Assembly (NCBI GenBank): GCA_967755195.1
Contig: CBRAFJ010000001.1
Coordinates: 1-39,270, forward strand
DNA: 39,270 nt
Direction of reading: 5' to 3'
Source of the DNA: an uncultured bacterium
GTDB lineage: Bacteria > Patescibacteriota > Saccharimonadia > Saccharimonadales > Saccharimonadaceae
The notes beneath the pieces were generated by a model that made no database searches, had not been told where the DNA came from, and was given only the letters and a program-made list of their open reading frames with translations. Positions 3,365 to 35,072 of this stretch are shown here, piece after piece. Position 1 is the stretch's first letter. Each line of letters begins with the position of its first letter. Both the position numbers and the translations under genes were made by a program.

Positions 3365-3391
3365 ATAGGCTGTATTTTACATACAGCCTAT
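3365..3391 (-). terminator. Hairpin downstream of the last pilin gene
   Basis: ATAGGCTGTA-(7 nt)-TACAGCCTAT, a perfect 10-bp stem. A moderately T-rich tail follows on the minus strand. Confidence 0.5.
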
Positions 3392-3441: not shown

Positions 3442-3873
3442 CTATCGAGCAGAGGTGCCAGCAAGTGCTTGGGTAACAAAGTTAACTGCAGCGTAAGCCA
3501 GGAAGGCAACGACTATACCAACTATCGCGTATAGTATAGTGTTTTTCGCGGCCGTGACCTGCGACTGGTCGCCACCAGAGATAACGTAACGGATACCGCC
3601 GATGATCAGCATGATGACGCTAATAGCACCAACCAAAAACAGCATAACGTTGGTCACGCGACCAAATATACTGCTTTCACCGCCGAACAGGTCAGCAGGC
3701 TGCTCGTTGCCGCGTGCACAATCAGCGCCAGAGGCGATCGACAGATTGTTCGGGTTGCACGAGGCTGCCGAAACGCTAATATCGTTTACCAGTACAGCTG
3801 CGGCGCCTAGAACAGCAACTGCCAAAAGGGCAGCCGACGCACTTTGGAAAAGTGTTTGTATACGTTTTTTCAT
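3442..3873 (-). CDS. VirB2/TrbC-like T4SS pilin paralog P6
   Basis: 143 aa. Signal peptide (..AAVLVNDISVSAA), Cys pair (SC..DC), helix 1 VTNVMLFLVGAISVIMLIIGG, loop IRYVISGGDQSQVTAAKNTILYAIVG, helix 2. Own promoter, and separated from P5 by a terminator. Confidence 0.78.
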   Translation of the reverse strand: MKKRIQTLFQSASAALLAVAVLGAAAVLVNDISVSAASCNPNNLSIASGADCARGNEQPADLFGGESSIFGRVTNVMLFLVGAISVIMLIIGGIRYVISGGDQSQVTAAKNTILYAIVGIVVAFLAYAAVNFVTQALAGTSAR

Positions 3874-3879
3874 ACCCTA

Positions 3880-3888
3880 TTTATAACA
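3880..3888 (-). promoter_or_regulatory. Extended -10 element TGT-TATAAA, 6 nt upstream of ATG 3873 (candidate leaderless promoter of P6)
   Basis: Minus strand reads TGTTATAAA-TAGGGT-ATG. Same geometry as at 737-745 and 766-774. Confidence 0.4.
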
Positions 3889-3904
3889 TAGCCACCCCTG
3901 AAAG

Positions 3905-3939
3905 GCAAAAACAAACAGCCCCGATTTCCGAGGCTGTTT
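3905..3939 (-). terminator. Intrinsic terminator after pilin P5
   Basis: On the minus strand, AAACAGCC..GGCTGTTT stem (extendable with a G-U pair) followed by GTTTTTG. Confidence 0.65.
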
Positions 3940-3961
3940 GCGTACTTTGTAGCTGGATTTT

Positions 3962-4366
3962 TTATTGGCCAGCGAGTGAGTTGGTAACAAAGCTAACCGC
4001 AGCGTAGGCTAGGAAGGCGATGATGATACCAATGATCGCGTAAAGGATGGTGTTCTTTGCGCTAGTGACCTGAGCCTGGTCACCCTGACTGATAACGTAA
4101 CGGATACCACCGATGATCAGCATGATGACTGAAACAGCACCGATCAGGAAGAGCAGGATGTTAGTAACAGTCTGGAAGATACTTCCTTCACCGAACAGGT
4201 CGTCCGGAGTACTTTCGCTGTTGCTACACTCAGCACCAGCGGCGATGCCCTGAGAAACATCGTCACAGCTAGCAGCGTATGCAGGCGTGGTTACGAATGC
4301 CAAACCAAGTACGAGAGCTGGAACTAGCAGCAGACCTTGGCTGATTTTTTTAATGATAGACTTCAT
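3962..4366 (-). CDS. VirB2/TrbC-like T4SS pilin paralog P5
   Basis: 134 aa. Signal peptide ending PAYA, Cys pair (SC..EC), core ILLFLIGAVSVIMLIIGGIRYVISQGDQAQVTSAKNTILYAIIG. SD AAGGAGAA lies 8 nt upstream of the ATG. Confidence 0.8.
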   Translation of the reverse strand: MKSIIKKISQGLLLVPALVLGLAFVTTPAYAASCDDVSQGIAAGAECSNSESTPDDLFGEGSIFQTVTNILLFLIGAVSVIMLIIGGIRYVISQGDQAQVTSAKNTILYAIIGIIIAFLAYAAVSFVTNSLAGQ

Positions 4367-4421
4367 GAAAAAAGTTCTCCTTAGTTTTTGTCGTATAAAT
4401 ACAGTTTTAGTTATAGCAGAC

Positions 4422-4817
4422 TTATCTTATCTCGCCAACAACCCAGTTAACTATCGCAAATGCCATCATGGCTACTACTAGACCGATAACAGCGTAGAGA
4501 ATAGTGTTACGCGCACTCGATACTTGAGAGGAATCGCCCTGACTAGTAACAAAACGAATGCCGCCGAGAATGATGAAAATGACCGATATAACACCGATAA
4601 TGAACAGTAGTAGGTTGATAATGTTCGTGATGGTACTAGTAAAGTCACCAGCGCGATTACCACCTTCATTACCACCGACAGAGTTGATACCCTGTTGAAC
4701 TTCGTTAGAGTTCGCCATCGCCACGGAAGACTGTAGACTGACCGTAAATGACGCCAGGCCAATGACCATCGCAAGTGCTGCTAACGAGCGAGTGATAGTT
4801 TGTATAAATCGTTTCAT
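4422..4817 (-). CDS. VirB2/TrbC-like T4SS pilin paralog P4 (Cys-free, Gly/Asn-rich mature N-terminus)
   Basis: ORF 4422-4871. Internal ATG 4817 (MKRFIQT..) has SD AAGGAGAAAGAA and avoids overlap with P3. Core LLLFIIGVISVIFIILGGIRFVTSQGDSSQVSSARNTILYAVIG. Confidence 0.78.
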   Translation of the reverse strand: MKRFIQTITRSLAALAMVIGLASFTVSLQSSVAMANSNEVQQGINSVGGNEGGNRAGDFTSTITNIINLLLFIIGVISVIFIILGGIRFVTSQGDSSQVSSARNTILYAVIGLVVAMMAFAIVNWVVGEIR

Positions 4818-4836
4818 TTCTTTCTCCTTTACCTTT

Positions 4837-5202
4837 CTAAATACGGCCAATAACCCAGTTAACGATCGCAAATGCCATCATAGCAACAACCAGGCCAACT
4901 ATAGAGTATATTACCGTGTCGCGGCCGCTATTCACCATCTTTGGATCACCGTTACTGGTAGTAAATCGGATAGCACCTACTATGATCATGATAACTGCAA
5001 CGATACCTATAACAGTCAGCAGCAAGTTAATGACGTTTCTCATCAGCGTCCAGACGCTGTCATCACGACCCTGGCAAACGGCAGTGTTGGCGCTAGCACC
5101 ACTACACGACTGCCAGATGTCGATAGCACTAGCTGGTTCAGCGACAAAAGCGGCAGTCGCTAGACTAACCACAGCTAAAAGTGATATTAGAAACTTTTTC
5201 AT
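4837..5202 (-). CDS. VirB2/TrbC-like T4SS pilin paralog P3
   Basis: 121 aa. Signal peptide ending PASA, Cys pair (SC..VC), core LLLTVIGIVAVIMIIVGAIRFTTSNGDPKMVNSGRDTVIYSIVG. SD AAGGAGGA. Confidence 0.8.
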   Translation of the reverse strand: MKKFLISLLAVVSLATAAFVAEPASAIDIWQSCSGASANTAVCQGRDDSVWTLMRNVINLLLTVIGIVAVIMIIVGAIRFTTSNGDPKMVNSGRDTVIYSIVGLVVAMMAFAIVNWVIGRI

Positions 5203-5211
5203 TGATCCTCC

Positions 5212-5877
5212 TTACCCGGCAAACCTTCCGAGTATTAACTGAACTATAGCAAATCCCATGATGACAAACACTAGACCGACTATCGAATAGATGATGGTAT
5301 TGCGAGCATTCTTAACTTTGCCTGGGTCACCTTGGCTGATGGTAAACATTACGCCGCCGATGATAACAAAGATAACCGCTACAACGCCTGCGATAGGGAA
5401 GATGATGTTGTTTAATATGGCTGCCACCTGACCCTGACCAGCAGCAACATTTGGTAGACCGAAGCCAGTTCTTCCACCGGATATAGATGTAGCTATGACG
5501 TTCACAATGGCGGTAGACGCCAGGGCAACACCAAGTCCGATGACAGCGTTTATGATAGCCTGTTTGGCTCCTTGGGTAGCAGAAGGGTCACCGCGACTCT
5601 TCATGTAGCGGAAACCGCCCCACATGATGAAACCAACCGCCGCATAGCCAACAACGTGTAGCAGCATCTCGACGACATTTAGGGCGATGACCCAGATGTC
5701 GTTCAGGTTATCTATCGTGACAGATCGACAATCGTTACTGACATTGCTGTACCAAGCGGGAAGAGTTAGGATACCCGAAGAACAAGCACGGGCCTCGACT
5801 GGTGGCACAAAAACCACTCCAACCATCACTAGGGCAGCGAAGAACGAAGCCGCAGCCTTTTTCAATATATCTAGCAT
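5212..5877 (-). CDS. Tandem double-domain VirB2/TrbC-like pilin P2
   Basis: ORF 5212-5919. ATG 5877 (MLDILKK..) has a GGGAGG SD and overlaps the upstream TAA as TAATG. Two complete pilin cores: ..GFIMWGGFRYMKSRGDPSATQGAKQAIINAVIG.. and ..IFVIIGGVMFTISQGDPGKVKNARNTIIYSIVG.. Confidence 0.78.
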   Translation of the reverse strand: MLDILKKAAASFFAALVMVGVVFVPPVEARACSSGILTLPAWYSNVSNDCRSVTIDNLNDIWVIALNVVEMLLHVVGYAAVGFIMWGGFRYMKSRGDPSATQGAKQAIINAVIGLGVALASTAIVNVIATSISGGRTGFGLPNVAAGQGQVAAILNNIIFPIAGVVAVIFVIIGGVMFTISQGDPGKVKNARNTIIYSIVGLVFVIMGFAIVQLILGRFAG

Positions 5878-6269
5878 TATAGTAATCCTCCCGGTACGAG
5901 CGCGTTCACGAGCGCCCAACCAAATATAAACAGCAACAGACCTATAACGGCATTTACTATGATAGTTATAGCTTGTTTAGTCTTAGCGGCGTCACCGTTA
6001 CTAGATATGTACATCAGTGCACCCCAGACGATACCACCAACAACTGCTATACCGACACCGATAGCCAAGAAATTAGTGATCTGCAGGACTATCGACATCG
6101 CAGGGTTACCACCTGTGGTGTTACACCTTATTATGTTAGTTTCTATGTCACTACATGACTTGTTAAAGTTCGTAGCCGAAGCAGTACTAAAAGGCAGCAG
6201 GGCAGCAGCTACGGCAACAACCAGTAGTAACGGAACAAGTTTGTAATGTATTTTTGTTATAGTCTTCAT
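5877..6269 (-). CDS. VirB2/TrbC-like T4SS pilin paralog P1 (first gene of the pilin operon)
   Basis: ORF 5877-6317. ATG 6269 (MKTITKIHYK..) gives a normal signal peptide ending SASA. Cys pair (SC..RC), core FLAIGVGIAVVGGIVWGALMYISSNGDAAKTKQAITIIVNAVIG. Confidence 0.72.
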   Translation of the reverse strand: MKTITKIHYKLVPLLLVVAVAAALLPFSTASATNFNKSCSDIETNIIRCNTTGGNPAMSIVLQITNFLAIGVGIAVVGGIVWGALMYISSNGDAAKTKQAITIIVNAVIGLLLFIFGWALVNALVPGGLL

Positions 6270-6288
6270 TTCATATACCTTATCTAAA

Positions 6289-6317
6289 AATATCCCATAT
6301 ATCCGCACTACTTGCAA
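6289..6317 (-). promoter_or_regulatory. Candidate promoter of the pilin operon (TTGCAA-17 nt-GATATT)
   Basis: Minus strand has TTGCAA at 6317-6312 and GATATT at 6294-6289. A ~12-nt leader containing AAGG follows. Confidence 0.35.
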
Positions 6318-6329
6318 CAGATAAGTCGC

Positions 6330-6358
6330 TTGTATTAGCTGGTCGGCTGTAGGATAAT
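6330..6358 (+). promoter_or_regulatory. Candidate promoter of the VirB6-to-487aa operon (TTGTAT-17 nt-GATAAT)
   Basis: -35 at 6330-6335 and -10 at 6353-6358. It sits back-to-back with the pilin promoter, 12 bp apart. Confidence 0.35.
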
Positions 6359-6387
6359 TTTAGGGAGTAACGCACTCATACATATAT

Positions 6388-8985
6388 ATGCGAAAAATAT
6401 CAAAACTTCTCTTTGTTATAACGGCGCTAGCTTTTACGCTGTCGTTTGGCGTAATTTCTAACAGTCCCGTAGCCTACGCTACCAGTGGGGGTGGAGGAAA
6501 CGAAGAACGCTGTAGCGACTTCTCTGAGGCTAGTGACCGTGAGATGTGTAATGACCAGTACAACGAGTGTCAGGCCGCAACCGGCGGCAACAACTGTATG
6601 GAAAGGGCCGTTACATATACCCAGGAAAACGGCACACAGGCACCAGAAGGTGAGGCTGATGTCTGTACGGCAGGTGCCCTAGGTTGGCTCGTTTGTCCAG
6701 CTATAGATTTCTTGGCAACCATGAACGACGCAGCATACGCGGCTGTCGAGTCAATGCTGTATGTAAACCCTGTAGCACTAGAGAACGGCGGACCACTGTT
6801 TGAGACATGGCAGAGGTTCCGCGACATAGCAAACGCTTTGTTCGTAGTAGCGATACTTGTGATCGTATTTTCTCAGGCAACATCACTAGGTCTGTCTAGT
6901 TATGGCGTAAAAAAGCTACTGCCGAGGGTTATAGCGGCAGCTATTTTAGTAAACATATCATTTTTCCTATGCCAGATAGCTATAGATATATCTAACATTA
7001 TCGGCGTTAGCATACATAGTTTGTTCGAGAGCTTCTATAGTGATAATGACGTCGATATAGACGGTATCAGCTGGGCATCACTGATAACAGGAGTATTGGC
7101 AGGTGGCGCTCTGTGGGGCGCTGGAGCAGTTGCGCTTGGTTCTGGTGGAATAATGGCGGCAATGGCGAGCATTCTCCCTTTCCTGGTGACGGCGCTGTTT
7201 GCCGTCATAACAGCACTTGTCGTACTAATAGCCCGTCAAGTAATCATCATCCTTCTAGTTGCTCTCTCACCATTAGCGTTTGTAGCCCTTATATTGCCTA
7301 ACACTCAGAAATACTTCCAGATGTGGCAAAACACCATAACCACCATGCTGGTTATGTTCCCGCTGGTTGCTGCTTTGTTCGCAGGCAGCAAACTGGCTGC
7401 AAACATAGTCCTAACATCACCAACATCCGACGGAGATGGGGGTATTAACTTATTCTCTGCCATCGCAGCAATCTGTATGATGTTCATTCCACTGTTTGCT
7501 GTGCCTTTTATAGTCAAATTCAGTGGCGGTACATTGGGACGCTTGGCCGGTATGATAAACAATCCTAGCAAAGGACCTTTCGATGCACTGCGTAGGCGGG
7601 CAGAAGAAAGCCGAGACCTGGCGCAGAACAGGGCACGCACAAGGGCTCTTAGTAGTGAAAAAGGTAATAATAACAATCCGTTTACGTTTGCAGGCCGGGT
7701 TAAACGCAACAACGCACGTAACTATAAGAACAAGCTAGCAAAGGGAATTTACGAAGAGGCAGAGCAAGAAGATATCGCACGACGAGCGTTTAGCAACGAA
7801 AATCCTGATTCTGCCAAGAAATTCGCAACCAAAATGGCTGGCTCCGATAACCCAGCATATATAACCGCGGTGCAGGCCAGCGCTAAGTCTACTGTGGATA
7901 AGCTCGAGCGTGAAAGTGCGCAGCGACGTGAAATCCTCATAAAGGCGCAGCACGACCCGCGAGAACTGCTACAGAAATCTCAGACTGGATATGTCGAGGC
8001 TGTGAAAAATAATGACTTAGCCGGCGCGCGCGCATACCAGAACATCATGCTTAATGGTGGCTCAGCAGGTATAAGTAAACTTGAAGGAGCCATAGAAGCA
8101 GCCGAGAAACATACAGACGGAGACCTGTTCCAGAAGCACTCAGAACTGAGCTCGCAACTGCGAAGTGACTTAAACTCTGCAGGACTGAAATCTAAAAACA
8201 ACGTACTTGCAACCTGGGCGTTTACTCCGAATGCCACTGTCGAGGGTCAGAGAAGAAGCGCTGGTACTTACAATACACTTACTGACGCTGAATTCGTAGG
8301 TCAGTCACCCGCCAACATAAAGGCTGCTTTAGCCGCAAATTCTATAACTTCCGAGCGAGCACAAGATATGCTTGACAACCCTAATCTTAGACTTAGCTTT
8401 AGCCCTGACAAGCGCGAAATTGTCAAAAACGCAATGAGCGGCCTACCCTCAGGGGCCTCAACTCAAAGTCAAGCAGGCCCCGGCGGCCCGCCTACAGCTG
8501 GCCCACCACCTAGCCCTGGTCCAAGCGGCCCTCCTCCTAGTGGAGGCAGTCCAGCCACTCCTCGTGGTCCTTCAGGACCACCTCCGGCCGCACCTCTGGG
8601 ATATGCTCCAGCTCCCCAGGCGACAGCAGCACCAACGCCCCCACCAGCGCAAGTAGTCCAAGCTCCGGCGCCGGCGACACCTGCTAGCAACCTACCACCA
8701 GCTCAACCAGCCCAGCAGGCCACTATAGCTCCTGATGCTCCGCGATACACAGCACCTTACAGCCAAAGTGACATACAAGCGATGGGTTCTGGTGGTATCC
8801 GTACCATCATCAGGGAAGTCCCTCAGGGCGCCCAAGGTCTGTCTAACGCCGATATAGCAAAGATTATCAACGCCACGCAAGACCAGTCAGCCATGCAAGA
8901 TATCAACCAAGAACTGCGGATGGAAAGAAACCGCCGACGAGGTGGTTTCGACCCAACTAGCGGTCCACAGAACCCTCTACCTTAG
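6388..8985 (+). CDS. VirB6/TrbL-like polytopic membrane protein with Cys-rich N-terminal exodomain and ~450-aa hydrophilic, proline-rich C-terminal extension
   Basis: 865 aa. Signal peptide, then a Cys-rich segment (6 Cys), then at least 6 long hydrophobic helices including ARQVIIILLVALSPLAFVALILPNTQKYFQMWQ (TrbL/VirB6-like). The helical/charged C-terminal part ends in a PGGPPTAGPPPSPGPSGPPPSGG.. tract (~8470-8730). Confidence 0.75.
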   Translation: MRKISKLLFVITALAFTLSFGVISNSPVAYATSGGGGNEERCSDFSEASDREMCNDQYNECQAATGGNNCMERAVTYTQENGTQAPEGEADVCTAGALGWLVCPAIDFLATMNDAAYAAVESMLYVNPVALENGGPLFETWQRFRDIANALFVVAILVIVFSQATSLGLSSYGVKKLLPRVIAAAILVNISFFLCQIAIDISNIIGVSIHSLFESFYSDNDVDIDGISWASLITGVLAGGALWGAGAVALGSGGIMAAMASILPFLVTALFAVITALVVLIARQVIIILLVALSPLAFVALILPNTQKYFQMWQNTITTMLVMFPLVAALFAGSKLAANIVLTSPTSDGDGGINLFSAIAAICMMFIPLFAVPFIVKFSGGTLGRLAGMINNPSKGPFDALRRRAEESRDLAQNRARTRALSSEKGNNNNPFTFAGRVKRNNARNYKNKLAKGIYEEAEQEDIARRAFSNENPDSAKKFATKMAGSDNPAYITAVQASAKSTVDKLERESAQRREILIKAQHDPRELLQKSQTGYVEAVKNNDLAGARAYQNIMLNGGSAGISKLEGAIEAAEKHTDGDLFQKHSELSSQLRSDLNSAGLKSKNNVLATWAFTPNATVEGQRRSAGTYNTLTDAEFVGQSPANIKAALAANSITSERAQDMLDNPNLRLSFSPDKREIVKNAMSGLPSGASTQSQAGPGGPPTAGPPPSPGPSGPPPSGGSPATPRGPSGPPPAAPLGYAPAPQATAAPTPPPAQVVQAPAPATPASNLPPAQPAQQATIAPDAPRYTAPYSQSDIQAMGSGGIRTIIREVPQGAQGLSNADIAKIINATQDQSAMQDINQELRMERNRRRGGFDPTSGPQNPLP

Positions 8986-8992
8986 GTAACCT

Positions 8993-9925
8993 ATGGCAGT
9001 ATACAAAGTACCCCAAGACGTTGAAGCCGAAGACAAACTGATAGGTCCATTCAGTTTCCGGCAGTTCATATATCTGATAGTTGCAGCTCTCGGCATATTG
9101 CTAGCATGGGCGCTGAGCCGTCTATTTATCGGTCTCGCAATCGTTCCGCTGCCGATAATTGTGGCGTTCTTAGCCTTGGCTCTCCCGCTGCGCAAAGACC
9201 AGCCGATGGAGACCTACCTGGTGGCTCTACTGAAGTTCTATTTCAAACCTCGTAGTCGTCTATGGGATCCAGAAGGGCAGATATCCCTTGTAAACATCAC
9301 GGCAGCAAAGGCTACTGAAGGACCGCAACTGAAAGCGCTTCGTGGAGCAGCAGCATCACAACAGCTAGCCTATCTAGCCCAAGTCGTAGACACCCAGGGC
9401 TGGGCTTCTCGTGGTGCAACCCAGAACCAGAACCTATCTGACCTGATAGTTGCTGAAGCTGACCAGGCCGAAGACGTCCTAGACGCAAGCAGTGGTGTTG
9501 CTCAGGCTCTTGACCAACGTATAGCTCAGTCGGACGATGCACGACGTCAAGCGCTTCGTGAGCAAATGCAGGCAACCAACACGCCGTCACAGCCAAGTCC
9601 AGCGCAAACTATATTTGCCACCCCAGAACCGACCCCACAAGCGTCACTACCTACCGATAATGTCGCCTTTAGCCCATACCCAAGCAACATGCACCAAAGG
9701 GTGTTGTCACCTGATGGAAAATTGACTCAGGGACAGACATCGAACAAAAATGACCAGCCAGTCATAACTGAGGAAAACAAACCAGCAGAAACTCCTGGTG
9801 CTATGGCGGTCTCCCCTGATATAATGAGACTTGCAAACAATAACGACCTTTCTATTAGCGCTATCGCACGCGAAGCGCAACGGCTCAGCGAAGACGACCA
9901 AGAAGTCGTCATAACACTTCGCTAG
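8993..9925 (+). CDS. PrgI/VirB3-like small-TM protein with long Gln/Pro/Ala-rich C-terminal tail
   Basis: 310 aa. N-terminus YKVPQDVEAEDKLIGPFSFRQFIYLIVAALGILLAW plus a second TM helix resembles the PrgI (VirB3 analogue) family signature. It sits between VirB6-like and VirB4, as in monoderm T4SS loci. Confidence 0.6.
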   Translation: MAVYKVPQDVEAEDKLIGPFSFRQFIYLIVAALGILLAWALSRLFIGLAIVPLPIIVAFLALALPLRKDQPMETYLVALLKFYFKPRSRLWDPEGQISLVNITAAKATEGPQLKALRGAAASQQLAYLAQVVDTQGWASRGATQNQNLSDLIVAEADQAEDVLDASSGVAQALDQRIAQSDDARRQALREQMQATNTPSQPSPAQTIFATPEPTPQASLPTDNVAFSPYPSNMHQRVLSPDGKLTQGQTSNKNDQPVITEENKPAETPGAMAVSPDIMRLANNNDLSISAIAREAQRLSEDDQEVVITLR

Positions 9926-9969
9926 CCATACTCTAGAAAGGGTGGGGGATAAACGGGAACCGTTTACTT

Positions 9970-10800
9970 ATGGATCCGAATAATCAGCAACCAGCTGGAC
10001 AACCGGCCGCAATGCCGCAAGTACCGCCAACTCCTGGTGTTGCTTCTGGCCCGCAAACACCTCAGAGCGCCAAACCGCGCAACCCTAATAGCACTCAGAA
10101 CACTCTGTTAATCGCCGAGTTACGCGAAGGCATGGCCATCATGAACGATGGTAGTTTTCGTGCTGTCGTCGCCTGTCAGTCGATAAACTTTGACCTAATG
10201 AGTGCTCGCGAACGAGAAGGTGTCGAATACAGCTATCAGAACTTCCTGAACTCGCTATATTTCCCGATACAGATCTTCGTCCGCTCTCAACGCGTTGACA
10301 TAGGTCCATATCTGGAGCGTCTGGCAAAGATCCGCCGTGACCAGGACAATATGCTGCTAGGTGTACTGATGGACGACTACATGAACTTTATCGACGCTCT
10401 TTCACAGGAAACTAACATTATGGACAAAGATTTTTATGTCGTCGTGCCTTACTACCCAATAGGCGATCTGAACGCTTTTACTAGTGGCAGTAAAAGTATT
10501 TTCTCGGCAATCATGAAGCCAGACCAGCAAAAAACCGTCACTGTCGACCAAGTCGCCTACACTAAGGCAAAAGAAGAGATATCTAACCGCGTCAACGCCG
10601 TCATGAGCGGTCTTTTCCAGATGGGTATAAAGTGTCAGCAGCTGAGCACAAAACAGCTCGGTGAACTGTACTACAACATGTACAACCCGGACACAGCCGT
10701 TCGTGAACCGATGGGAGATTTCGAAAACCTGACTAGCACCTATGTCAGCAAGGGAACCGGCCAAGCACCTCAACCACATCTAGACAGGACTCAGCAATAA
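9970..10800 (+). CDS. Hypothetical protein, translationally coupled to virB4; Pro/Gln-rich N-terminus plus a globular domain reminiscent of VirB4 N-terminal domains
   Basis: 276 aa. TAA overlaps the virB4 ATG (TAATG at 10798-10802). Segment IAELREGMAIMNDGSFRAVVACQSINFDLMSAREREGVEYSYQNFLNSLYFPIQIFVRSQRVDIGPYL resembles the CagE/TrbE/VirB4 N-domain pattern. This is memory-based and unverified. Confidence 0.6.
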   Translation: MDPNNQQPAGQPAAMPQVPPTPGVASGPQTPQSAKPRNPNSTQNTLLIAELREGMAIMNDGSFRAVVACQSINFDLMSAREREGVEYSYQNFLNSLYFPIQIFVRSQRVDIGPYLERLAKIRRDQDNMLLGVLMDDYMNFIDALSQETNIMDKDFYVVVPYYPIGDLNAFTSGSKSIFSAIMKPDQQKTVTVDQVAYTKAKEEISNRVNAVMSGLFQMGIKCQQLSTKQLGELYYNMYNPDTAVREPMGDFENLTSTYVSKGTGQAPQPHLDRTQQ

Positions 10801-12707
10801 TGGCTTTTGGAAAGAAAAAACAGAGCGCTATAGACATAGCCGAAGCTCAGCGGTTACGCGAGCAACAAGAAGTCGAAACTGAATTCCTTAAAGGCATCAC
10901 GACCCTACGCGACCTGATTGCCCCTAGTAGCTTAGAGGTCCAGAGTGCTTATTTCCGTATCGGTACCAAATACGGCCGTACTCTGTACATCTACGGTTAC
11001 CCACGACAGATCTACACCGGTTGGCTCAGTAGCATCATCAACGTCGACGAAGTTATCGACGTCAGCATGTTCATCTACCCAGTTGAAAGCCAGGTAGTCC
11101 TAAACAACCTACGTAAAAAGGTTGGTCAGCTCGAGGCAAGCATCTCTATAAATGCCGAACACGGAAAAGTTCGTGACCCGGGTCTAGAGGCCGCTATACA
11201 AGACGCTGAAGAACTGCGTGACCAGCTACAAGTCGGCGCCGAGCGTTTCTTCCGTTATGGCCTATACATGACCATGTACGCTGACAGCCTAGACGAACTA
11301 GCCTTCGTCCAGCACAAGATAGAGACCATACTCGGTCAACAGATGGTTTTCAGTAAAGTTGCGTCAAGCCAGCAAGAGCAGGGGCTAAACAGTACCATCC
11401 CACAGATGGCAGACCAACTGCAGATTCGCCGCAACATGAACACCGGCGCTATTTCGACATCATTTCCATTCACCAGCGCCGATCTAACCCAGGAAAAGGG
11501 TGTGCTCTACGGTATAAACATGCACAACAACGGTCTAGTTATATTTGACCGTTTCTCACTCGAGAACGCCAACATGGTCGTCTTCGCCAAGTCTGGTGCC
11601 GGTAAGTCGTTCACCGTCAAACTAGAAGCCCTACGTAGTATGATGATGGGTTCTGACGTTATCATCATCGACCCAGAAAATGAGTACCAGCGACTAACCG
11701 AGGCTGTCGGAGGCAGTTATATACAACTCAGCCTGAACTCGGCAGTGCGCATCAACCCGTTTGACCTACCACGCGTTATCGACAGCGACGACGCCGAAGA
11801 CGCGCTGCGTGCTAACCTAGTCACCCTACACGGCCTACTACGCCTAATGCTGGGTGGCGGGCAAGTGGTCAACGGCATGGCAATCGCCGCACTCACACCG
11901 GCCGAAGAAGCTGACCTCGATCAGGCTCTTATCGACACCTACGCTCGCGCCGGTATCACTAGCGACCCTCTAACTCATAATTCATTGCCACCAACTATTG
12001 GGGATCTATACGAAACCCTATTACACATGGGTGGTAGCGGTCCGCAGCTAGCCCAACGTCTGCGCAAATACACCACTGGTACATTTGCCGGTATTTTCAG
12101 CCAGCAGAGCAACATAGACATCAACAACCCGATGGTCGTGTTTAACATTCGCGACCTAGAAGACGAACTGCGACCAGTCGCTATGTATATCGTCCTAAGT
12201 CATATCTGGAACAAAACCCGCACCGACCAGAAAAAACGTATGCTGATCGTTGACGAGGCTTGGCAGCTGATGAAATATGATGACTCGGCAAACTTCCTGT
12301 TTAGTCTTGCCAAGCGGGCCAGGAAATACTATCTTGGACTTACCACCATCACACAGGACGTTGAGGACTTTATGAGCAGCAAGATGGGTCGCGCCATCGT
12401 TGCCAACAGCTCTATGCAGCTACTGCTAAAACAAAGCTCTAGCGCCGTCGACGTTCTGGGAGAAGTCTTTAAACTAACAGAGGAAGAGCGTAAACGTCTA
12501 GCGAACTTCCCGGTCGGCCAAGGGTTATTCTTTGCCGGACAAAACCACGTCCACATACAGGTTATCGCAAGTCCAACTGAACAAAACCTGATAACAACAA
12601 ACCCTCAACAGGTAAAAGCCATGCAACAACAACAGCAACAGCCAACAAATCAGCCGCTCTATGAACAATCGCAATCAGGATACGCAGACCCGAACCAACA
12701 ATTTTAG
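10800..12707 (+). CDS. virB4: VirB4-family T4SS ATPase
   Basis: 635 aa. Gram-positive-type N-domain (LIAPSSLEVQSAYFRIGTKYGRTLYIYGYPRQIYTGWL). Walker A FAKSGAGKSFT (~11586-11612). Walker B MLIVDEAWQL (~12240-12265). Poly-Gln C-terminal tail. Confidence 0.9.
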   Translation: MAFGKKKQSAIDIAEAQRLREQQEVETEFLKGITTLRDLIAPSSLEVQSAYFRIGTKYGRTLYIYGYPRQIYTGWLSSIINVDEVIDVSMFIYPVESQVVLNNLRKKVGQLEASISINAEHGKVRDPGLEAAIQDAEELRDQLQVGAERFFRYGLYMTMYADSLDELAFVQHKIETILGQQMVFSKVASSQQEQGLNSTIPQMADQLQIRRNMNTGAISTSFPFTSADLTQEKGVLYGINMHNNGLVIFDRFSLENANMVVFAKSGAGKSFTVKLEALRSMMMGSDVIIIDPENEYQRLTEAVGGSYIQLSLNSAVRINPFDLPRVIDSDDAEDALRANLVTLHGLLRLMLGGGQVVNGMAIAALTPAEEADLDQALIDTYARAGITSDPLTHNSLPPTIGDLYETLLHMGGSGPQLAQRLRKYTTGTFAGIFSQQSNIDINNPMVVFNIRDLEDELRPVAMYIVLSHIWNKTRTDQKKRMLIVDEAWQLMKYDDSANFLFSLAKRARKYYLGLTTITQDVEDFMSSKMGRAIVANSSMQLLLKQSSSAVDVLGEVFKLTEEERKRLANFPVGQGLFFAGQNHVHIQVIASPTEQNLITTNPQQVKAMQQQQQQPTNQPLYEQSQSGYADPNQQF

Positions 12708-12717
12708 GTAGGAACCC

Positions 12718-15700: not shown

Positions 15701-16470
15701 TCAGGTGGGGATTGTCATACTGTGTCTACACGCAGGGCGGCCTAATGCAGCACGCTCACGACATGGCTCAGGGTGACAGCCCATCGGCAGGATGCTCTAG
15801 GCCTGACACTGGTGGTATCGACCACATATATGTCACTCCAAAAGAAAATGTCACCGCCACTGGATGGACCCATATGAGCAAGAGTGGCATAGTCGCCAGG
15901 GCATCAGACCACTCCCCAGTATACGCCACCGTCAACCTAGGCGGTGATGAAGAGGCAGCCGGCGGAAGTTTCCAGTGGCCTATAAAGCGAGCTGATTTCA
16001 CACACCTGTCAGGATGTTACCCACGGCAAAACGGCTCTAGCGGCAACGGTCACGCCGGTATAGACATCGATGTACCTAACACTGGCTACCATCAGCGATC
16101 AACACCGGTTTATTCAGCCACTACGGGCACAGTTACGGCCGTTGACGACGACATCGGCGGTGGTATCAGTGGTGTACAGATAAGTGCCCCTGGTGGTATG
16201 TATGTCGTTTACGAACACATGACCGGTTACAGAAGCTTCGTAAGGGTTGGTGAGCGTGTAAACGCCGGCGACCAGATAGGTTTCGCCTCGGACGTTGGCG
16301 CTACCGGTGCACACCACTTGCACTTTGGTGTAACGACACAGCGTGGCTGGTTCGGTGTAAAGTCCAACCCGACCGACCGTACAAAAAACCCTCTAGACTT
16401 CCTGCCAGCTGACCGACCACTAGCTAACGCTCTCGGCGGTACCTGTACTGCGTCAGGAGGAGCAAACTAA
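12718..16470 (+). CDS. Membrane-anchored multidomain protein: one N-terminal TM, ~650-aa Cys-rich unknown region, EEP (endonuclease/exonuclease/phosphatase) domain, C-terminal M23/LytM peptidase
   Basis: 1250 aa. TM helix IALGGGIGGGAIGITLLIFSLLPF. EEP motifs occur in order: SYNV (15106-15117), GTQE (15277-15288), GDYN (15682-15693), IDHIY (15817-15831), SDHSPV (15904-15921). M23 motifs: HAGID (16051-16065) and HHLHF (16312-16326). Confidence 0.85.
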   Translation: MAATNSPNRYTDDDLNVADKEFNDIVNRPDMQALDEQGDAAIRDHDAKAGDSKPDGKNVGDLGRAESKAASGPRNNFYNPTRSGGATKGSSGFVGSLKGAFTGKNKKRNIALGGGIGGGAIGITLLIFSLLPFKLPGLMEIIANEAGQRVEQITERRAKQIIARAILTRMGIKAGGGYIVTGNGPLHDLYASMRTAGFEKKLAAKGITIQDRGANGVRVLLNGEVLGRGDLRTDREIIEALDGNRVTNQVLKQLVKEEVPSWRWMKRAKFAKWLRLKYGIPRYGIENSQNDDDDEKVAEMQKGRLKTSYERITKNVMEVFGCVMGGDSCPANQSADRPDDGRSSDNAIDESDLTETADELLEEETSNRKFFAKVHAKLLDTVLGKLASKAIPIIGWIDLAATVDHIIYEFGDNDYLATLPAYYRGLGYAQIYGERAGYADQQKLGALDPAFIAVLATQADGAEESQAFNYINGDSTRGKPIDMKVNNCDDCKSSINRYWQWYKDNIGDTLAGSTGTIKCPDDGIGAGACITSHEIMNAYYETIGGGGLLGWLSGVVGDAGSWAFQRIMDLLPGLPFEDWLANKMKQAMKFVLETFGLYIDPLDTGAALFNNMHAGATVTFNSFCEESGCRKLTPEQTGMVNSQIAAERDEYLRSQSLGYRLFSPENTRSITTQLAVSLPTAPQNDITGSVSAFASLVANAPAKLLSTVLPTASANTKYVDLYGVDPFGALPADLNQNISNELLRGEECPDVAENQYNGCKIDKTVAEAMICEFTPEIPDCSDEDAPVEGSAGFVVGSYNVLDSDAHEEDSRRIGGCSQAELANDRNCTRTRSARQAQIINGNSSAGNPAFDVVGTQEMSETQYNQLKSMLSGYDAFPTDGSGLGNSRDGKLGIFWKRSKFTLVESGKAPGLSNIADRINNPWVGLRATNGQMVYFMSIHYAHRDCSDGRCDGNKAPNNVFEANMRESSRLTMDWVRSKATGNNIAIVVGDYNDQLRWGLSYCVYTQGGLMQHAHDMAQGDSPSAGCSRPDTGGIDHIYVTPKENVTATGWTHMSKSGIVARASDHSPVYATVNLGGDEEAAGGSFQWPIKRADFTHLSGCYPRQNGSSGNGHAGIDIDVPNTGYHQRSTPVYSATTGTVTAVDDDIGGGISGVQISAPGGMYVVYEHMTGYRSFVRVGERVNAGDQIGFASDVGATGAHHLHFGVTTQRGWFGVKSNPTDRTKNPLDFLPADRPLANALGGTCTASGGAN

Positions 16471-17672
16471 TGAATAAGTTTCGTAGTGCAATACTTGCGG
16501 TTCTAGCAGCACTTATTTCTATAGGTACGCCGATGACTGCATACGCCGATAGTTTCCAGGTACCACCAGAGATAACAAACCGCGAAAAAGCCCACTTGAA
16601 CATCGCCTTTACCGGTGGTGGCAACGACGGTAAATGTGATGAAAGTGGTACGACCTTAAGTGGCGCCAACAATAAGGAAAAAGTCTGGAATTTTTTCGTA
16701 AACAAAGGTCTCTCAGCCGAGCAAACAGCCGGCATCATGGGCAACATGGCCGTGGAGAGTGGTTTTGACCCGACTGTAGTTCAAGGTGGATCTCACTCGA
16801 CGAACCCTGCTAGTATCTCAGCCGGATGGGGAATCATCCAGTGGACACCTGGGTCCAAAATCATCGGCCTGCTAGAACGGGCGGATATATCGGGCAATCC
16901 CTCAGAACTCGCGACACAGCTAGAACTAGTTTTGTGGCACATGAACTATACTAGTCCAACTGGTGTTACTAACATGTATGCACAGTACCAGAACGTTACT
17001 GATGTTGCCGAGGCAACCAGGATGTTCGAAGACCTAATGGAAGGCGCTGGCATACCACATATCGAGCGTCGAATAGAGGAGGCGAGAACTATCCTAGCCG
17101 AGCTAGGTGGCGGTGGCGACGCCGCAGGTGCTGACACAGATCTAGGTGGATGTACTGACGAAGGTGGTATAGCTTCAGCAAATGGTTTTACATTCCCACT
17201 GCGAACCACTAAAGCAGTCATACTGGCAGGTAGTAGTCTAGGTGGAGCGAACCTAAAATGGTGCCACACCAGCCAGACAAACTGTCACCACGATTACAAA
17301 GCGGCCGACATAATGGTTGTAACAGGAACTACAGTCGTAGCAGCAAAAGCTGGTACGGTACAAAAATCAAGCCGATCTGGATCGCCAGGAAATGTCACCA
17401 TCAACAGTAGTGACGGTAAGGGTATAAACTTTTATCAGCACTTAGATGCCGGGTCCGTAACAGTTAGTGCTGGTCAAAAAGTTTCTGCCGGCCAGGTACT
17501 CGGAAAAGTTGGTGACTCTACGGATGCCTTCGGCACAGCGCCGCACCTACACTTCGACATGCTGCCGTCACAATACAAATACCGCGTATCCTGTGCCGGT
17601 GCTTCCTGTTCGGGCTACCCATTCATCGAAGTTCAGCCAGCCCTAACCGAAACATTTAAACTATTGAATTAG
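16470..17672 (+). CDS. Secreted cell-wall hydrolase: lysozyme-like (phage-tail-lysozyme type) domain plus M23 peptidase
   Basis: 400 aa. ATG overlaps the upstream TAA (TAATG). Signal peptide ending AYA. Motif KGLSAEQTAGIMGNMAVESGFDP...GWGIIQWTPGSK. C-terminal M23-like segment GTTVVAAKAGTV..YQHLD..VSAGQVLGKVGDS..APHLHFDM. Confidence 0.8.
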   Translation: MNKFRSAILAVLAALISIGTPMTAYADSFQVPPEITNREKAHLNIAFTGGGNDGKCDESGTTLSGANNKEKVWNFFVNKGLSAEQTAGIMGNMAVESGFDPTVVQGGSHSTNPASISAGWGIIQWTPGSKIIGLLERADISGNPSELATQLELVLWHMNYTSPTGVTNMYAQYQNVTDVAEATRMFEDLMEGAGIPHIERRIEEARTILAELGGGGDAAGADTDLGGCTDEGGIASANGFTFPLRTTKAVILAGSSLGGANLKWCHTSQTNCHHDYKAADIMVVTGTTVVAAKAGTVQKSSRSGSPGNVTINSSDGKGINFYQHLDAGSVTVSAGQKVSAGQVLGKVGDSTDAFGTAPHLHFDMLPSQYKYRVSCAGASCSGYPFIEVQPALTETFKLLN

Positions 17673-17681
17673 GAGGTCGAC

Positions 17682-19145
17682 ATGACTAATACAACCAAAA
17701 TTCGCCTCATAGTCATCGCTGTCGTCATCGCCATTTTGGTGCCTGTGCTGTATTATTTCGCCACACATGGTCGGCTAAATATCACCAACCCAGGCGACAA
17801 ACAGGTTTCGCTCGTTAGCATAGAGGGAAATGAAACCAGCCAAGAGCAGGCTGTATCAAACGGATCTCTGGTAACATCCGGAACCTACATAGTCCGTAAC
17901 GACCAAAATGGCACGCTACGACTGGCAAATATTTCTGTCCCTGGCTGGCTCAGATCAGCTAGTGTTACTTTCATGGACACCAAAACTGCTCAGATGGACC
18001 GAGTTGCATCTCTAACATATGACAACTTCATCCCGGCCGACAACGGATCACTGGTTAGCTTCACGAGTCTAGGCAACCGCGCACCTGGTTTTAAAGCCCA
18101 CGTCACCGACGATGCTTTTGGTGGCAAGTCAGCAGACAGCCGTTTTGCATCTGACATCCTCTCACCAACACCAACCAGTGACGGCAAACTACTAGGCATC
18201 TATCAAGCAGATATCAGCACTTATTCGTTCGTAACCGGTCAATTCCAAAAAATTGCTACAGCGCCTATAGCCGACACCGAAGGTACCGACGAAGACCTAG
18301 CACTTCAACGGTCTTCAGGCACCACTAGCAGTCGAGTAGGGTACTCTCAGGCCGAAACGGGTAAGCTAACCGTCATAAACACCGCAAACAACTCTACTGA
18401 GACCGTAAATCTTCCTGACGGACACACCAAGGTCTTTGACGTAAACGACAATGGCTGGGCAAACGTGACGTCTAAAAATCCTGAGGGCGAAGCAAGCGAA
18501 GACACCTTTGCTAGCTATCAACTAGTTGTCGGCAAGTTTGGCTCAAATGACACAAAAACTCTAGATATAGGTGCCAATCGCAACGTAGACTCAGTTGCTT
18601 TATCGCCAGACTCTAAATACGCCGGAGTCGTCAAAAACGACCAGTTGTGGGTATACGACATCGAAAACAGCAGCGTCGTTATGGTAAATCCGTTCACGGC
18701 AGCGCAGCAGATGTTCTGGAATGGCGACAAACTATATAGCCTGACGGTTGACTCTGGTGTGACTGTTTTCGACAGCACTCAAAAACAGATATCTGCCATT
18801 ACTGTCAGTAACCCTGAAGGTCTATCATTTTCTAGCATGACACCAGTAGGATCAAAGCTATACGTCACTGCATTTAACACCAAACACGCCTCTCGCTTGG
18901 CTGACGGTTTCGTGATCGACTTGGAAAAGAACAGTGACGGAATAACCAACCAATTGGCAAAGTCTCTACCGATAGAAAAACAGGGTTACAAAGCCAACTA
19001 CCTGGGTAATAAAATATACGTTCGTGTCAACGACTACGGGCTGACCGCTGACGCCGTTGCTCGTATAAAGTTGAAGGCGACAGATGACCTGAAAAAAGCC
19101 CTAGGCGACACCTATGGCAAATGTGAAGTGGTCTTCGAAGACTAA
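17682..19145 (+). CDS. N-terminally anchored extracytoplasmic protein, possibly beta-propeller-like; last gene of the T4SS-like operon
   Basis: 487 aa. AGGAGG SD overlaps the upstream stop. Single TM helix (IRLIVIAVVIAILVPVLYYFA). Ser/Thr/Asn/Gly-rich beta-type sequence with a TolB/PD40-like element (LSPDSKYAGVVKNDQLWVYD). Confidence 0.6.
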   Translation: MTNTTKIRLIVIAVVIAILVPVLYYFATHGRLNITNPGDKQVSLVSIEGNETSQEQAVSNGSLVTSGTYIVRNDQNGTLRLANISVPGWLRSASVTFMDTKTAQMDRVASLTYDNFIPADNGSLVSFTSLGNRAPGFKAHVTDDAFGGKSADSRFASDILSPTPTSDGKLLGIYQADISTYSFVTGQFQKIATAPIADTEGTDEDLALQRSSGTTSSRVGYSQAETGKLTVINTANNSTETVNLPDGHTKVFDVNDNGWANVTSKNPEGEASEDTFASYQLVVGKFGSNDTKTLDIGANRNVDSVALSPDSKYAGVVKNDQLWVYDIENSSVVMVNPFTAAQQMFWNGDKLYSLTVDSGVTVFDSTQKQISAITVSNPEGLSFSSMTPVGSKLYVTAFNTKHASRLADGFVIDLEKNSDGITNQLAKSLPIEKQGYKANYLGNKIYVRVNDYGLTADAVARIKLKATDDLKKALGDTYGKCEVVFED

Positions 19146-21302: not shown

Positions 21303-21602
21303 TCTGTCTGTCCTTCTATTCTATTTATATAAGTAGTAGTCGTAGTAATAGGCTGTGTGGATAATGTGTAAAAGCCATAATTTTCATCTGTTATTTTCGT
21401 TTTTATGGTTGTGTATAAGTCTGTGAGTCTACTAGGCAAAAATCTGTGGGAATCTGGCCTCGTGCCGTGTATAAGTCTATGACGCCAAAACTTGTTCACA
21501 GTTTTGCACAAAATATGTGGACAAGAGCCCACATATTTTTCCCGTCTAGCGTCCACAGTTTGTACACAATATTTCCACAGTCCTGTAGACGCCTGGTTAC
21601 TG
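21303..21602. promoter_or_regulatory. DnaA-box cluster in the dnaA-dnaN spacer (candidate oriC half)
   Basis: Perfect TGTGGATAA at 21356-21364. TGTGTATAA at 21410-21418 and CGTGTATAA at 21466-21474, both inside a repeated 12-mer GTGTATAAGTCT. TGTGGACAA at 21516-21524. ATTTCCACA at 21571-21579. Several further 2-mismatch boxes. Confidence 0.7.
21511..21538. repeat. 10-bp perfect inverted repeat AAATATGTGG / CCACATATTT (8-nt spacer) carrying DnaA-box-like cores
   Basis: 21511-21520 is the reverse complement of 21529-21538. Confidence 0.8.
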
Positions 21603-22994: not shown

Positions 22995-23239
22995 GTAATG
23001 TACCTACGACTATAACGCATATCGATAGTTTTCCACAACCATAACAGGGAAGATTATTAGAGCAGGGTAGATAGGGCCCAAATAGGGGTAGAGTTATACA
23101 CAATCTATTTCCACCTCTGTAAAGCTGTGGAAAACCTATCCAAATATGTGGAAAACTTTATAATATTTTGTAACGAAATTGTCAAAAAGCAAATATATGT
23201 CTTGAGAAAACAGGGGAGATTTGGTAAAATTACCCCTAT
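22995..23239. promoter_or_regulatory. DnaA-box cluster plus AT-rich tract between dnaA and rpmH (candidate oriC / DUE; also holds the dnaA and rpmH promoters)
   Basis: TTTTCCACA at 23029-23037. TTATACACA at 23094-23102. TGTGGAAAAC at 23126-23135 and again at 23147-23156, 21 bp apart. AT-rich run at 23155-23215. rpmH promoter TTGAGA (23202-07)-17 nt-TAAAAT (23225-30). Confidence 0.7.
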
Positions 23240-27364: not shown

Positions 27365-27483
27365 ATGAACTTATTATAAAGCGAGCTAACGAGAGAACGA
27401 AATCTGTTTACATATTTCTTTCCGAGTAGCGAAGTTTTATATCGCTGATTGATATAACCTCATATATAATAGTAAGAACTTTT

Positions 27484-29451: not shown

Positions 29452-29452
29452 C

Positions 29453-33449: not shown

Positions 33450-33453
33450 GCTA

Positions 33454-33984
33454 TTATTCTACCTTGATTATCCTTGACTCCGAAACACCCCTAACAGTAT
33501 TCGTCTTATAGGAAACCGTAACCTCCCAGTCCCCTGATGTTGGGAACTCAGATCTCTTTATAAGAGGATTTTTACATATTGTCGTAGAAACATCTCGATA
33601 TGCTGTGGTCGTTTTTTCTATTTTCGTGTTGCCTTGAGTGAATGTAATAATACAATCGCCGTCTTCATAGTGATTAGGTATGAAAGATCTCACTTCTATC
33701 ATGTCGCCATACTGTCCAGCGTCCGTGATGACTACACTGACAACTTGATTGCTAGGTTCTGGGGTGTTATTGCGTGCTCTTTCTTGCTCTAGAACCTGTT
33801 CTTTTTGTGAATCGCCAGCGCGTTGTTCCTGATCGGTTGGTGGGCTGTATTTGCCGTCGGTATTTGATGTCTGGTATTTATCCTTACTAAGCATCCACCA
33901 AGATATTGATGCTCCAGCTATAACTGCCAGGCAGAGAATAATGATTATGAATAGAGATTTCTTTGACTTACTTTTTATCTTCAT
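33454..33984 (-). CDS. Membrane-anchored hypothetical protein (small extracytoplasmic beta domain with one Cys pair)
   Basis: 176 aa. Lys-rich N-terminus plus TM helix (LFIIIILCLAVIAGASISWWM), charged linker, then a ~100-aa domain. It lies 4 nt upstream of the 585-aa gene, so co-transcription is likely. Confidence 0.6.
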   Translation of the reverse strand: MKIKSKSKKSLFIIIILCLAVIAGASISWWMLSKDKYQTSNTDGKYSPPTDQEQRAGDSQKEQVLEQERARNNTPEPSNQVVSVVITDAGQYGDMIEVRSFIPNHYEDGDCIITFTQGNTKIEKTTTAYRDVSTTICKNPLIKRSEFPTSGDWEVTVSYKTNTVRGVSESRIIKVE

Positions 33985-34085
33985 ACTATGTTCTTTACTA
34001 AAATTTAACCATAAATACTATATATAAGCAACCTCAGAGGAATACTCCCCTTAATTTAGCCGCGGCGTTATATAATTAATACGCA

Positions 34086-35051: not shown

Positions 35052-35072
35052 TGGCTAGAATTATTAACAAGG

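Follow-up and report, generated by a model that had tools for sequence, protein, structure and literature searches.

An origin-adjacent type IV secretion system locus in a Saccharibacteria genome

Genes of the locus and its flanks

We studied a stretch of 39,270 nucleotides (nt) from contig CBRAFJ010000001.1 (assembly GCA_967755195.1) of an uncultured bacterium of the Saccharimonadaceae, in the following called the window, which encodes components of a type IV secretion system (T4SS). Six minus-strand VirB2-like pilin genes, which hold seven pilin domains, are located divergently from a packed plus-strand operon (6388-19145). An earlier note, made from the sequence alone, had read this arrangement as a domesticated, non-conjugative surface machine derived from a T4SS. 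We recomputed the map of open reading frames (ORFs), which agrees with that reading in coordinates, gaps and overlaps. That is, the gaps of 7-44 nt (7, 44, 10 and 9 nt within the operon) as well as the TAATG stop/start overlaps at 10800 and 16470 (10798-10802 and 16468-16472) are reproduced. The features of the locus, with protein lengths in amino acids (aa) and transmembrane helices abbreviated as TM, are:

3442..3873, minus: pilin 1, VirB2-like, 143 aa, last gene of the array; PF18895 43.0 bits; signal peptide and 2 TM
3962..4366, minus: pilin 2, VirB2-like, 134 aa; PF18895 39.1 bits, TrbC 24.7 bits; 59% identity to pilin 1
4422..4817, minus: pilin 3, VirB2-like; PF18895 43.1 bits; likely ATG at 4817 (mechanical TTG ORF to 4871)
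4837..5202, minus: pilin 4, VirB2-like, 121 aa; PF18895 55.5 bits, TrbC 25.1 bits
5212..5877, minus: pilin 5, tandem double pilin; two PF18895 domains, 70.2 bits; signal peptide and 4 TM; likely ATG at 5877
5877..6269, minus: pilin 6, first of the array and most divergent; PF18895 24.1 bits; same topology; 28-39% identity to the others
6270..6387, no strand: divergent intergenic region of 118 nt between pilin array and structural operon; presumed promoters
6388..8985, plus: extended VirB6/TrbL-like polytopic membrane protein, 865 aa; Pfam TrbL 19.9 bits (cutoff 25.9)
8993..9925, plus: PrgI/VirB3-like protein, 310 aa; PF12666 55.4 bits, above gathering score
9970..10800, plus: TrsD-like protein, 276 aa; NF041427 E=1.2e-5; CD1110 profile positions 11-117; stop overlaps the virB4 start (TAATG)
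10800..12707, plus: VirB4 ATPase, 635 aa, MPF_FATA/CD1110 type; NF045971 372.7 bits (cutoff 325); PF19044 P-loop_TraG 103.8 bits
12718..16470, plus: large membrane-anchored protein, 1250 aa; TM 109-143; all-alpha scaffold ~110-780; EEP ~790-1077; M23 1111-1208
16470..17672, plus: secreted peptidoglycan hydrolase, 400 aa; Phage_lysozyme2 PF18013 99 bits; M23 PF01551 64.4 bits
17682..19145, plus: N-terminally anchored surface protein, 487 aa; beta-sandwich and WD40-like beta-propeller; convergent with recF
21356..23155, no strand: oriC context; dnaA (21603-22994, minus) between DnaA-box clusters 21356-21524 and 23029-23155

Conservation was assessed on 80 loci (L001-L080, nearest UBA6572) from a scan of GTDB species representatives, using tblastn with every window protein.

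VirB4 covers positions 184-733 of the CD1110 profile and keeps both Walker A (AKSGAGKS) and Walker B (MLIVDE) intact. Given scores above the respective thresholds, the earlier calls of an intact VirB4 and of a PrgI/VirB3-like protein are confirmed. In the latter, the PrgI domain (residues 5-90) is followed by a low-complexity tail. In contrast, the 276-aa product that the note had left as unknown is TrsD-like. Its gene is found directly upstream of virB4 and is present in 78/80 loci. Since it matches both TrsD (NF041427; far below the curated cutoff, so that the match is read as homology only) and the part of the CD1110 profile that precedes the VirB4 match, we consider it the split-off N-terminal part of VirB4, a trait already described in Patescibacteria (PMC12102498). 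The VirB6-like protein combines a Cys-rich exported N-terminal part, a TM bundle (~143-383) and a long hydrophilic, Pro-rich C-terminal part. Its assignment is supported because TrbL is the only Pfam family it matches and because 11/40 orthologues match that family, too; the position of the gene is conserved in 60 loci.

Pfam PF18895 (T4SS_pilin) is matched by each of the six ORFs on the minus strand from 3442 to 6317, and several of them also match TrbC/VirB2 below threshold. Five are above the gathering score (39-70 bits), while the sixth is just below (24.1 vs. 26.6 bits). Thus, the six genes of the earlier note are all pilin genes, but the domain count is seven because ORF 5212-5877 is a tandem double pilin. 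Every pilin carries a signal peptide and has a conserved Cys as well as two TM helices toward the C-terminus (four TM for the double pilin), and the paralogues are 28-59% identical to each other. A strong terminator-like hairpin (14-bp stem plus T-run) is found between pilins 2 and 1 (3911-3941, minus) and another one downstream of pilin 1 (3365-3391, minus). Their location on either side of pilin 1 suggests that its transcription or attenuation is uncoupled from that of the other five. A scan of the divergent region 6270-6387 for the sigma-70 consensus provided nothing convincing, i.e., no match above shuffled background.

Downstream of virB4, the Pfam domains of the 1250-aa EEP+M23 protein (EEP at residues 836-1065, M23 at 1111-1208) and of the lysozyme+M23 hydrolase are as predicted from the sequence. 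The 487-aa product, correctly described as anchored, is modelled as a membrane-anchored beta-sandwich followed by a WD40-like propeller.

We further searched the window for mobility genes, taking in every ORF of at least 60 aa for integrase, relaxase and type IV coupling protein (T4CP). For relaxase, T4CP, VirB11 and integrase, no ORF within the 39 kb has a family match in Pfam or NCBIfam. Flanking direct or att-like repeats are absent from the window as well, the sole direct repeats being those between pilin paralogues. That is, none of the hallmarks of a conjugative T4SS or an integrative and conjugative element (ICE) (relaxase; T4CP; integrase plus att repeats; patchy distribution) is observed, and an ICE identity, tried on the basis of integrase, relaxase, T4CP and flanking repeats, was rejected for the window. 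The profile and repeat searches hence agree with the earlier statement that relaxase, VirB11, integrase and flanking direct repeats are missing from the 39 kb. The analogous statement on the coupling protein holds for the window but not as a claim about the genome: the related strain ML1 (see below) has a distant homologue (SEML1_0293), and absence from 39 kb therefore says little about the whole genome.

On the pilin side, the locus is flanked by genes for a comFC-like phosphoribosyltransferase and Hsp20, two tRNA-Ser genes and a TraX-family gene. On the other side, recF-dnaN-dnaA followed by rnpA, yidC and jag are located downstream of and convergent with the operon. The core-gene flanks of the earlier note (comFC and hsp20 vs. 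recF-dnaN-dnaA) are thereby recovered, and so is its core-like composition, given a GC content of 0.45-0.54 over the T4SS and the core flanks. DnaA boxes are concentrated around dnaA, i.e., 7/16 window matches are within the two spacers flanking the gene. The two clusters are likely the oriC region, about 2.2 kb from the operon end. Because of this clustering, we consider the origin adjacency of the T4SS locus real.

Conservation and published counterparts

VirB4 homologues are all from Saccharibacteria or Saccharimonadales, with more than 120 clusters at least 86% identical. The gene order (hsp20/comFC, pilins, VirB6, PrgI, TrsD, VirB4, large protein, lysozyme, one or two small proteins, recF/dnaN/dnaA) is constant in the 80 loci where contigs reach. 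Among the loci that extend into the flanks, most are at the same site. The synteny expected among relatives is thus present.

Sequence conservation is very uneven along the locus. Relative to the window proteins, identities are 80-94% for VirB4, 51-83% for TrsD-like, 38-64% for PrgI and 28-43% for VirB6, and they are 25-76% for pilins, 21-51% for the hydrolases and 21-38% or undetectable for the large protein. VirB4 is more conserved than DnaA in 50/52 loci and than DnaN in 56/56; since loci were selected by VirB4 similarity, its conservation is somewhat inflated, while the within-genome comparison still holds. Such a distribution is what is expected for an ancient core machine whose cytoplasmic motor is constrained while its surface parts diversify rapidly, and not for a mobile element. 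Median identities for the same genome pairs are 85% (VirB4), 72% (Hsp20), 70% (DnaA), 59% (DnaN) and 41% (RecF), with VirB6 (34%) and the hydrolases (28-34%) among the fastest-evolving genes.

The closest described counterpart is the T4SS of Southlakia epibionticum ML1 (SEML1_0003-0022), whose gene order, read in reverse, matches the window gene for gene. From the ML1 gene table, this order is dnaA, dnaN, recF, two small exported proteins, a lysozyme protein, a 1114-aa protein with a C-terminal DD-peptidase fold, VirB4, a 294-aa protein, PrgI, VirB6, an NTF2-like protein, a second VirB6, six pilins, Hsp20, ComFC and tRNA-Ser (PMC10633639). Both loci are origin-adjacent with neither relaxase nor T4CP nearby. 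In ML1, the T4SS (SEML1_0006-0019) is essential by transposon sequencing (Tn-seq), with essential pilins, and no coupling protein or relaxase was recognisable (Wang 2023, Cell, PMC10633639). Nearly all genes in matching order scored essential, comFC (SEML1_0021) being non-essential, and the ML1 system was interpreted likewise, i.e., as essential for epibiotic growth (PMC10633639). A T4CP homologue of ML1 (SEML1_0293) is distant from the T4SS and non-essential.

The loci also differ. While ML1 has two VirB6 genes and the NTF2-like SEML1_0012, the window shows one VirB6 and no equivalent of SEML1_0012. The large protein carries EEP and M23 in the window but a Hedgehog/DD-peptidase (M15-like) domain in ML1. 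The lysozyme is paired with M23 here and with a second lysozyme plus a cysteine protease there. Finally, the last gene encodes the 487-aa beta-propeller protein in the window, in contrast to PEGA and prealbumin-like proteins in ML1, and the tandem double pilin is a window feature that differs from ML1.

On a broader scale, a survey of Patescibacteria places VirB4 in a clade related to MPF_FATA and reports TrsD next to it, arrays of 2-11 VirB2 genes and proximity to dnaA (Quinonero-Coronel 2025, PMC12102498). The same study finds relaxases in only 103 genomes, a mean identity of 25% within VirB2 arrays, and 5,713 VirD4-like T4CP homologues in 2,918 genomes, mostly far from virB4 (PMC12102498). 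The window agrees with this description in its VirB4 type, the adjacent TrsD-like gene, the presence of PrgI/VirB3 and VirB6, the pilin array, the lack of a relaxase or T4CP near virB4, and the synteny with dnaA, dnaN and the origin. The conjugative T4SSs of monoderms of type MPF_FATA (CTn2/CD1110, pCF10 Prg, pGO1 Trs) share the VirB4 family, PrgI/VirB3, TrsD and a VirB6-like protein with the window, as well as multi-domain wall hydrolases and the lack of an outer-membrane core. Unlike these systems, the window has no relaxase, adjacent T4CP, PrgB-type adhesin or recognisable VirB8-like gene. On the other hand, its VirB2-like pilin array has no counterpart in Gram-positive systems, and the locus is chromosomal and core instead of being part of a mobile element.

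The system has been reviewed (FEMS Microbiol Rev 2025). In a perspective from 2024, ComB-type uptake is raised and the role is described as 'completely unknown'. Earlier papers already contain the proximity to the origin, the arrays of pilin genes, the lack of a relaxase, TrsD and the notion of ComB-type uptake (PMC12102498; PMC11665869; PMC12857230). Thus, the earlier observation is real and its interpretation supported, but the literature already covers this kind of system and practically every point raised: given the published ML1 locus, survey, review and perspective, observation and inference were right and not novel.

Nevertheless, few machines have been shown to be essential for epibiotic life in bacteria of the candidate phyla radiation, and the T4SS of Saccharibacteria is one of them. 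For this reason, any such locus is biologically important. The window represents another orthologue of a system known from Tn-seq, a survey of thousands of genomes and a review. For specialists, it adds the view of a near-frozen cytoplasmic motor combined with fast-evolving surface parts, and the modular enzymatic tail of the large protein suggests testable links to host wall chemistry.

Proposed function and its rivals

Our preferred reading is that of a chromosomal, vertically inherited Saccharibacteria T4SS, orthologous to ML1 SEML1_0004-0019, that acts as a non-conjugative host-interface machine (probability of about 0.85). It builds on the gene content and order of the window, the integrity of the domains, the conservation, the origin position and the missing mobility genes. 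Two further points come from the literature, namely that the ML1 orthologue is essential and that competence is a process of its own. The claim of a domesticated, non-conjugative surface machine derived from a T4SS is thus well supported by the conserved site, the slow VirB4, the lack of mobility genes and the essential ML1 orthologue.

Mechanistically, we picture a platform derived from monoderm MPF_FATA systems, i.e., an extended VirB6, PrgI/VirB3 and a VirB4 split into TrsD-like and ATPase genes. This platform would drive the assembly of a VirB2-type filament or conduit from the divergent pilins of the opposed array. The anchored multi-enzyme protein (alpha scaffold, EEP, M23) and the secreted lysozyme/M23 hydrolase would open the cell wall, perhaps the epibiont's own and probably also that of the host, while the anchored beta-propeller protein could provide lineage-specific surface contact. 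The assembled machine would then bridge epibiont and host and move macromolecules (effectors out or host material in) instead of conjugating DNA. The steps we infer are pilus assembly, the targeting of the host wall, and which cargo is moved in which direction.

Several points weigh against this reading. For pilus, substrate and transport direction, neither the window analysis nor the literature provides direct evidence. The VirB6 call, which holds with respect to sole family match, polytopic topology and matching orthologues, is sub-threshold for the window protein itself (TrbL 19.9 vs. 25.9 bits), and no VirB8-like component is recognised in the window. A T4CP may be encoded elsewhere in the genome, as SEML1_0293 is in ML1, which would allow for transfer of DNA or T4CP-dependent transfer of proteins. 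Finally, the wall hydrolases could, like VirB1-type enzymes, serve only to pierce the wall of the epibiont itself, in which case the host wall step drops out.

The rival explanations concern the function only and leave the identification of the locus unchanged. A functional or decaying ICE, with relaxase, T4CP and integrase outside the window, would transfer DNA between cells. This could explain why VirB4 belongs to a conjugation-type family (CD1110/MPF_FATA) and why two tRNA-Ser genes and a TraX-family gene are close by; furthermore, T4CP homologues are common in Patescibacteria genomes, though far from virB4, and ML1 has one. We consider an ICE very improbable, since the locus is found at the same chromosomal site between core genes across the class, VirB4 evolves slower than DnaA and DnaN, and the 39 kb are free of integrase, relaxase and flanking repeats. 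It also conflicts with the scarcity of relaxases in Patescibacteria (the 103 genomes given above), the essentiality of the ML1 T4SS in contrast to its non-essential T4CP, and the lack of TraX at the equivalent site of a related locus (L036).

If the T4SS was used for ComB-like uptake, it would import host DNA, RNA or nucleotides for a nucleotide-auxotrophic cell, with the EEP domain acting as a nuclease on the substrate. For DNA, this is weakened by ML1, where a comEC deletion abolishes competence with viability unaffected and comFC (SEML1_0021) is non-essential, even though comFC adjoins the locus in the window. The EEP-fold domain is present and a relaxase is missing, but the EEP profile favours a sugar-phosphatase family (1e-27 to 1e-29) over nucleases. 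Since the domain occurs in only 9/59 loci, it cannot be core to the mechanism. The ComB system of H. pylori, cited as precedent in published speculation, is likewise T4SS-derived without relaxase or T4CP and serves as a functional analogy for import. However, it is a diderm system (VirB2-4 plus VirB6-10) feeding ComEC, while the window architecture is monoderm. The ComB outer-membrane core is inapplicable to a monoderm, and no VirB7/9/10-like envelope components are found in the window (Pfam, NCBIfam); for ML1, the literature rules out a functional link to ComEC. On the other hand, tubules that are possibly T4SS pili have been seen at a patescibacterial parasite-host interface and feeding on host RNA has been reported, and uptake of host nucleic acids is compatible with these recent reports. 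Taken together, we regard uptake of this kind as unlikely.

Rather improbable is a pure adhesion organelle, in which the VirB2-like pilins would serve as a fibre for attachment without any translocation. The six to seven divergent pilins resemble the VirB2 arrays of Bartonella and Anaplasma, which vary antigenically and likewise consist of tandem, sequence-divergent VirB2 genes beside a T4SS. The latter systems are, however, diderm effector translocators of animal pathogens, and the antigenic variation against an immune system that is proposed for them is inapplicable to a bacterial host. Fast evolution of surface parts (pilins 25-76%, VirB6 28-43%) and the anchored beta-propeller would fit adhesion. 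Yet Saccharibacteria already adhere and move by type IV pili, and a constrained set of VirB4, VirB6 and VirB3 together with wall-lytic enzymes exceeds what a fibre needs, although VirB4 is needed for pilus biogenesis. A search of the literature for cryo-electron tomography of a Saccharibacteria T4SS found none, which is no proof of absence.

Large protein, hydrolases and neighbouring features

For the large protein, about 39 homologue clusters are detectable, including the window's own protein. The N-terminal part (~110-780), which contains a single TM helix and invariant cysteines, is common to the homologues, while the C-terminal enzyme domains vary, i.e., EEP+M23, GH43+M23, VanY or none detectable. 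Lengths range from 746 to 1608 aa across 59 species-representative loci, among which EEP is found in 9 large proteins (one to three tandem copies) and M23 in 17. The M23 domain of the window protein keeps both the HxxxD and the HxH motif. The scaffold is modelled by AlphaFold2 as all-alpha (pTM 0.75); a search for its fold in the PDB was negative (best E=1.8), as was the PHROG search outside M23. Among the orthologues, two or three tandem EEP domains are found in L059:11857-16683 and L001:11040-15488, and one (L032:11217-15419) combines EEP with a GH43 glycosidase. Two EEP domains are also present in the gene that follows the large protein in L068 (15803-18739).

The EEP domain keeps every canonical catalytic residue, all of them invariant. 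Its profile matches over the full domain a Bacteroides family that includes the mannose-6-phosphatase BT3783 (4c1r, 3mpr, 3g6s; E=1e-27 to 6e-29). CCR4-type enzymes, nocturnin and related RNA/DNA phosphodiesterases are matched with ~1e-9 or weaker, and ExoIII with 5e-4. The earlier label of a nuclease fold is thus right with respect to the fold, but the closest characterised relative is a mannose-6-phosphatase, and a DNase I/ExoIII-type nuclease is unsupported. Because the profile favours the sugar-phosphatase family, a role as phosphoesterase on glycan phosphates or wall polymers is at least as likely as that of a nuclease, based on these profile comparisons. Unlike the Bacteroides family, the window's EEP domain is fused to a T4SS-linked membrane scaffold plus M23, and Saccharibacteria large proteins sometimes have 2-3 tandem copies.

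We tentatively propose that the large protein is a conserved, T4SS-coupled delivery scaffold, with one TM helix and invariant cysteines on the extracellular side, whose envelope-attacking C-terminal 'warheads' are exchanged between lineages and act on the host envelope. The modules observed are one to three EEP domains of the sugar-phosphatase family, an M23 endopeptidase, a GH43 glycosidase and a VanY/M15 peptidase. This joint reading, which we consider doubtful, includes that the modules are matched to host wall chemistry, help to set the host range and spare the epibiont's own wall. If true, it would place a polymorphic-toxin-like logic on an essential T4SS, with phosphodiester-linked wall glycopolymers as an example target. 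A literature search found no prior mention of the EEP module, which is no proof of absence. In the literature on the system, we also found neither the swappable C-terminal modules nor the sugar-phosphatase kinship of EEP nor a VirB4 more conserved than DnaA/DnaN. The residual novelty of the locus is the modular 'warhead' architecture together with the EEP subfamily, which is a modest lead.

A lysozyme2-like gene is found at the position equivalent to that of the lysozyme/M23 hydrolase in 47/59 loci. Within residues 270-280 of the window protein, HxH is present (HLH), while HHDYKAAD replaces the canonical HxxxD. Judged from this motif, its M23 domain may have an atypical metal site or be non-catalytic. 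The PHROG matches of both hydrolases are endolysins, M23 domains embedded in tape measures and tail-lysozyme domains from phage tape-measure and tail proteins. Phage tail enzymes pierce the target wall from outside; the kinship with the window hydrolases is limited to the catalytic domains. In contrast to these, the ~700-aa alpha-helical scaffold of the large protein is without phage or PDB relative.

The AlphaFold2 model of the 487-aa protein (pLDDT 87) has Foldseek matches to WD40 structures with E ~1e-10, while no family match was found in Pfam or NCBIfam. An assignment as VirB8 (NTF2) analogue was rejected, since the model shows a beta-sandwich plus WD40-like propeller and not an NTF2 fold. 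With 9 homologue clusters, including the window's own, and presence in one of 80 loci, the protein is a lineage-restricted accessory limited to close relatives.

Outside the T4SS genes, the TraX-family gene is found close to the window start:

754-1563, plus: TraX-family acyltransferase gene; Pfam TraX 126.5 bits; weak match to F-type pilin acetylase TIGR02755

Its neighbours are a gene for a membrane protein of 183 aa and, on the other side, the two tRNA-Ser genes; the pilin array ends 1.9 kb away. TraX was not found in any of the 80 related loci, most of which end before that position. In L036, a homologue of the 183-aa gene is located between a tRNA-Arg and two tRNA-Ser genes with no space for TraX. 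Since these neighbours leave no room, TraX does not look like a conserved T4SS partner. A role as a conserved pilin-modifying partner was rejected based on this layout and on its absence from the 80 loci, both of which are weak evidence. An Rfam scan of the window provided tRNAs only, including a truncated one at the window edge (1-49, minus; 30.8 bits). At the equivalent position, L036 has its tRNA-Arg, beside the homologue of the 183-aa protein.

Given the presumed origin, the structural operon of 12.8 kb (6388-19145) is transcribed toward it, i.e., head-on to replication, while transcription of the pilin array is co-directional. ML1 likewise has its T4SS genes opposite in strand to dnaA-dnaN-recF, according to its gene table (PMC10633639), such that the head-on orientation of this essential operon appears to be conserved between window and ML1. 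A 103-aa ORF in the dnaA-dnaN spacer (21299-21610) has neither homologues nor domains and is probably spurious, i.e., part of a bipartite oriC instead of a gene.

At the other end of the window, a surface-polysaccharide cluster (27400-39270) is a compositional outlier with a GC content of 0.36-0.44 compared to 0.45-0.54 in the rest. Its genes code for ABC transporter proteins of the Wzm/Wzt type, several glycosyltransferases (GT2/GT4), a pyruvyl transferase and DUF2142 proteins, and it possibly represents a variable glycan locus or one exchanged horizontally.

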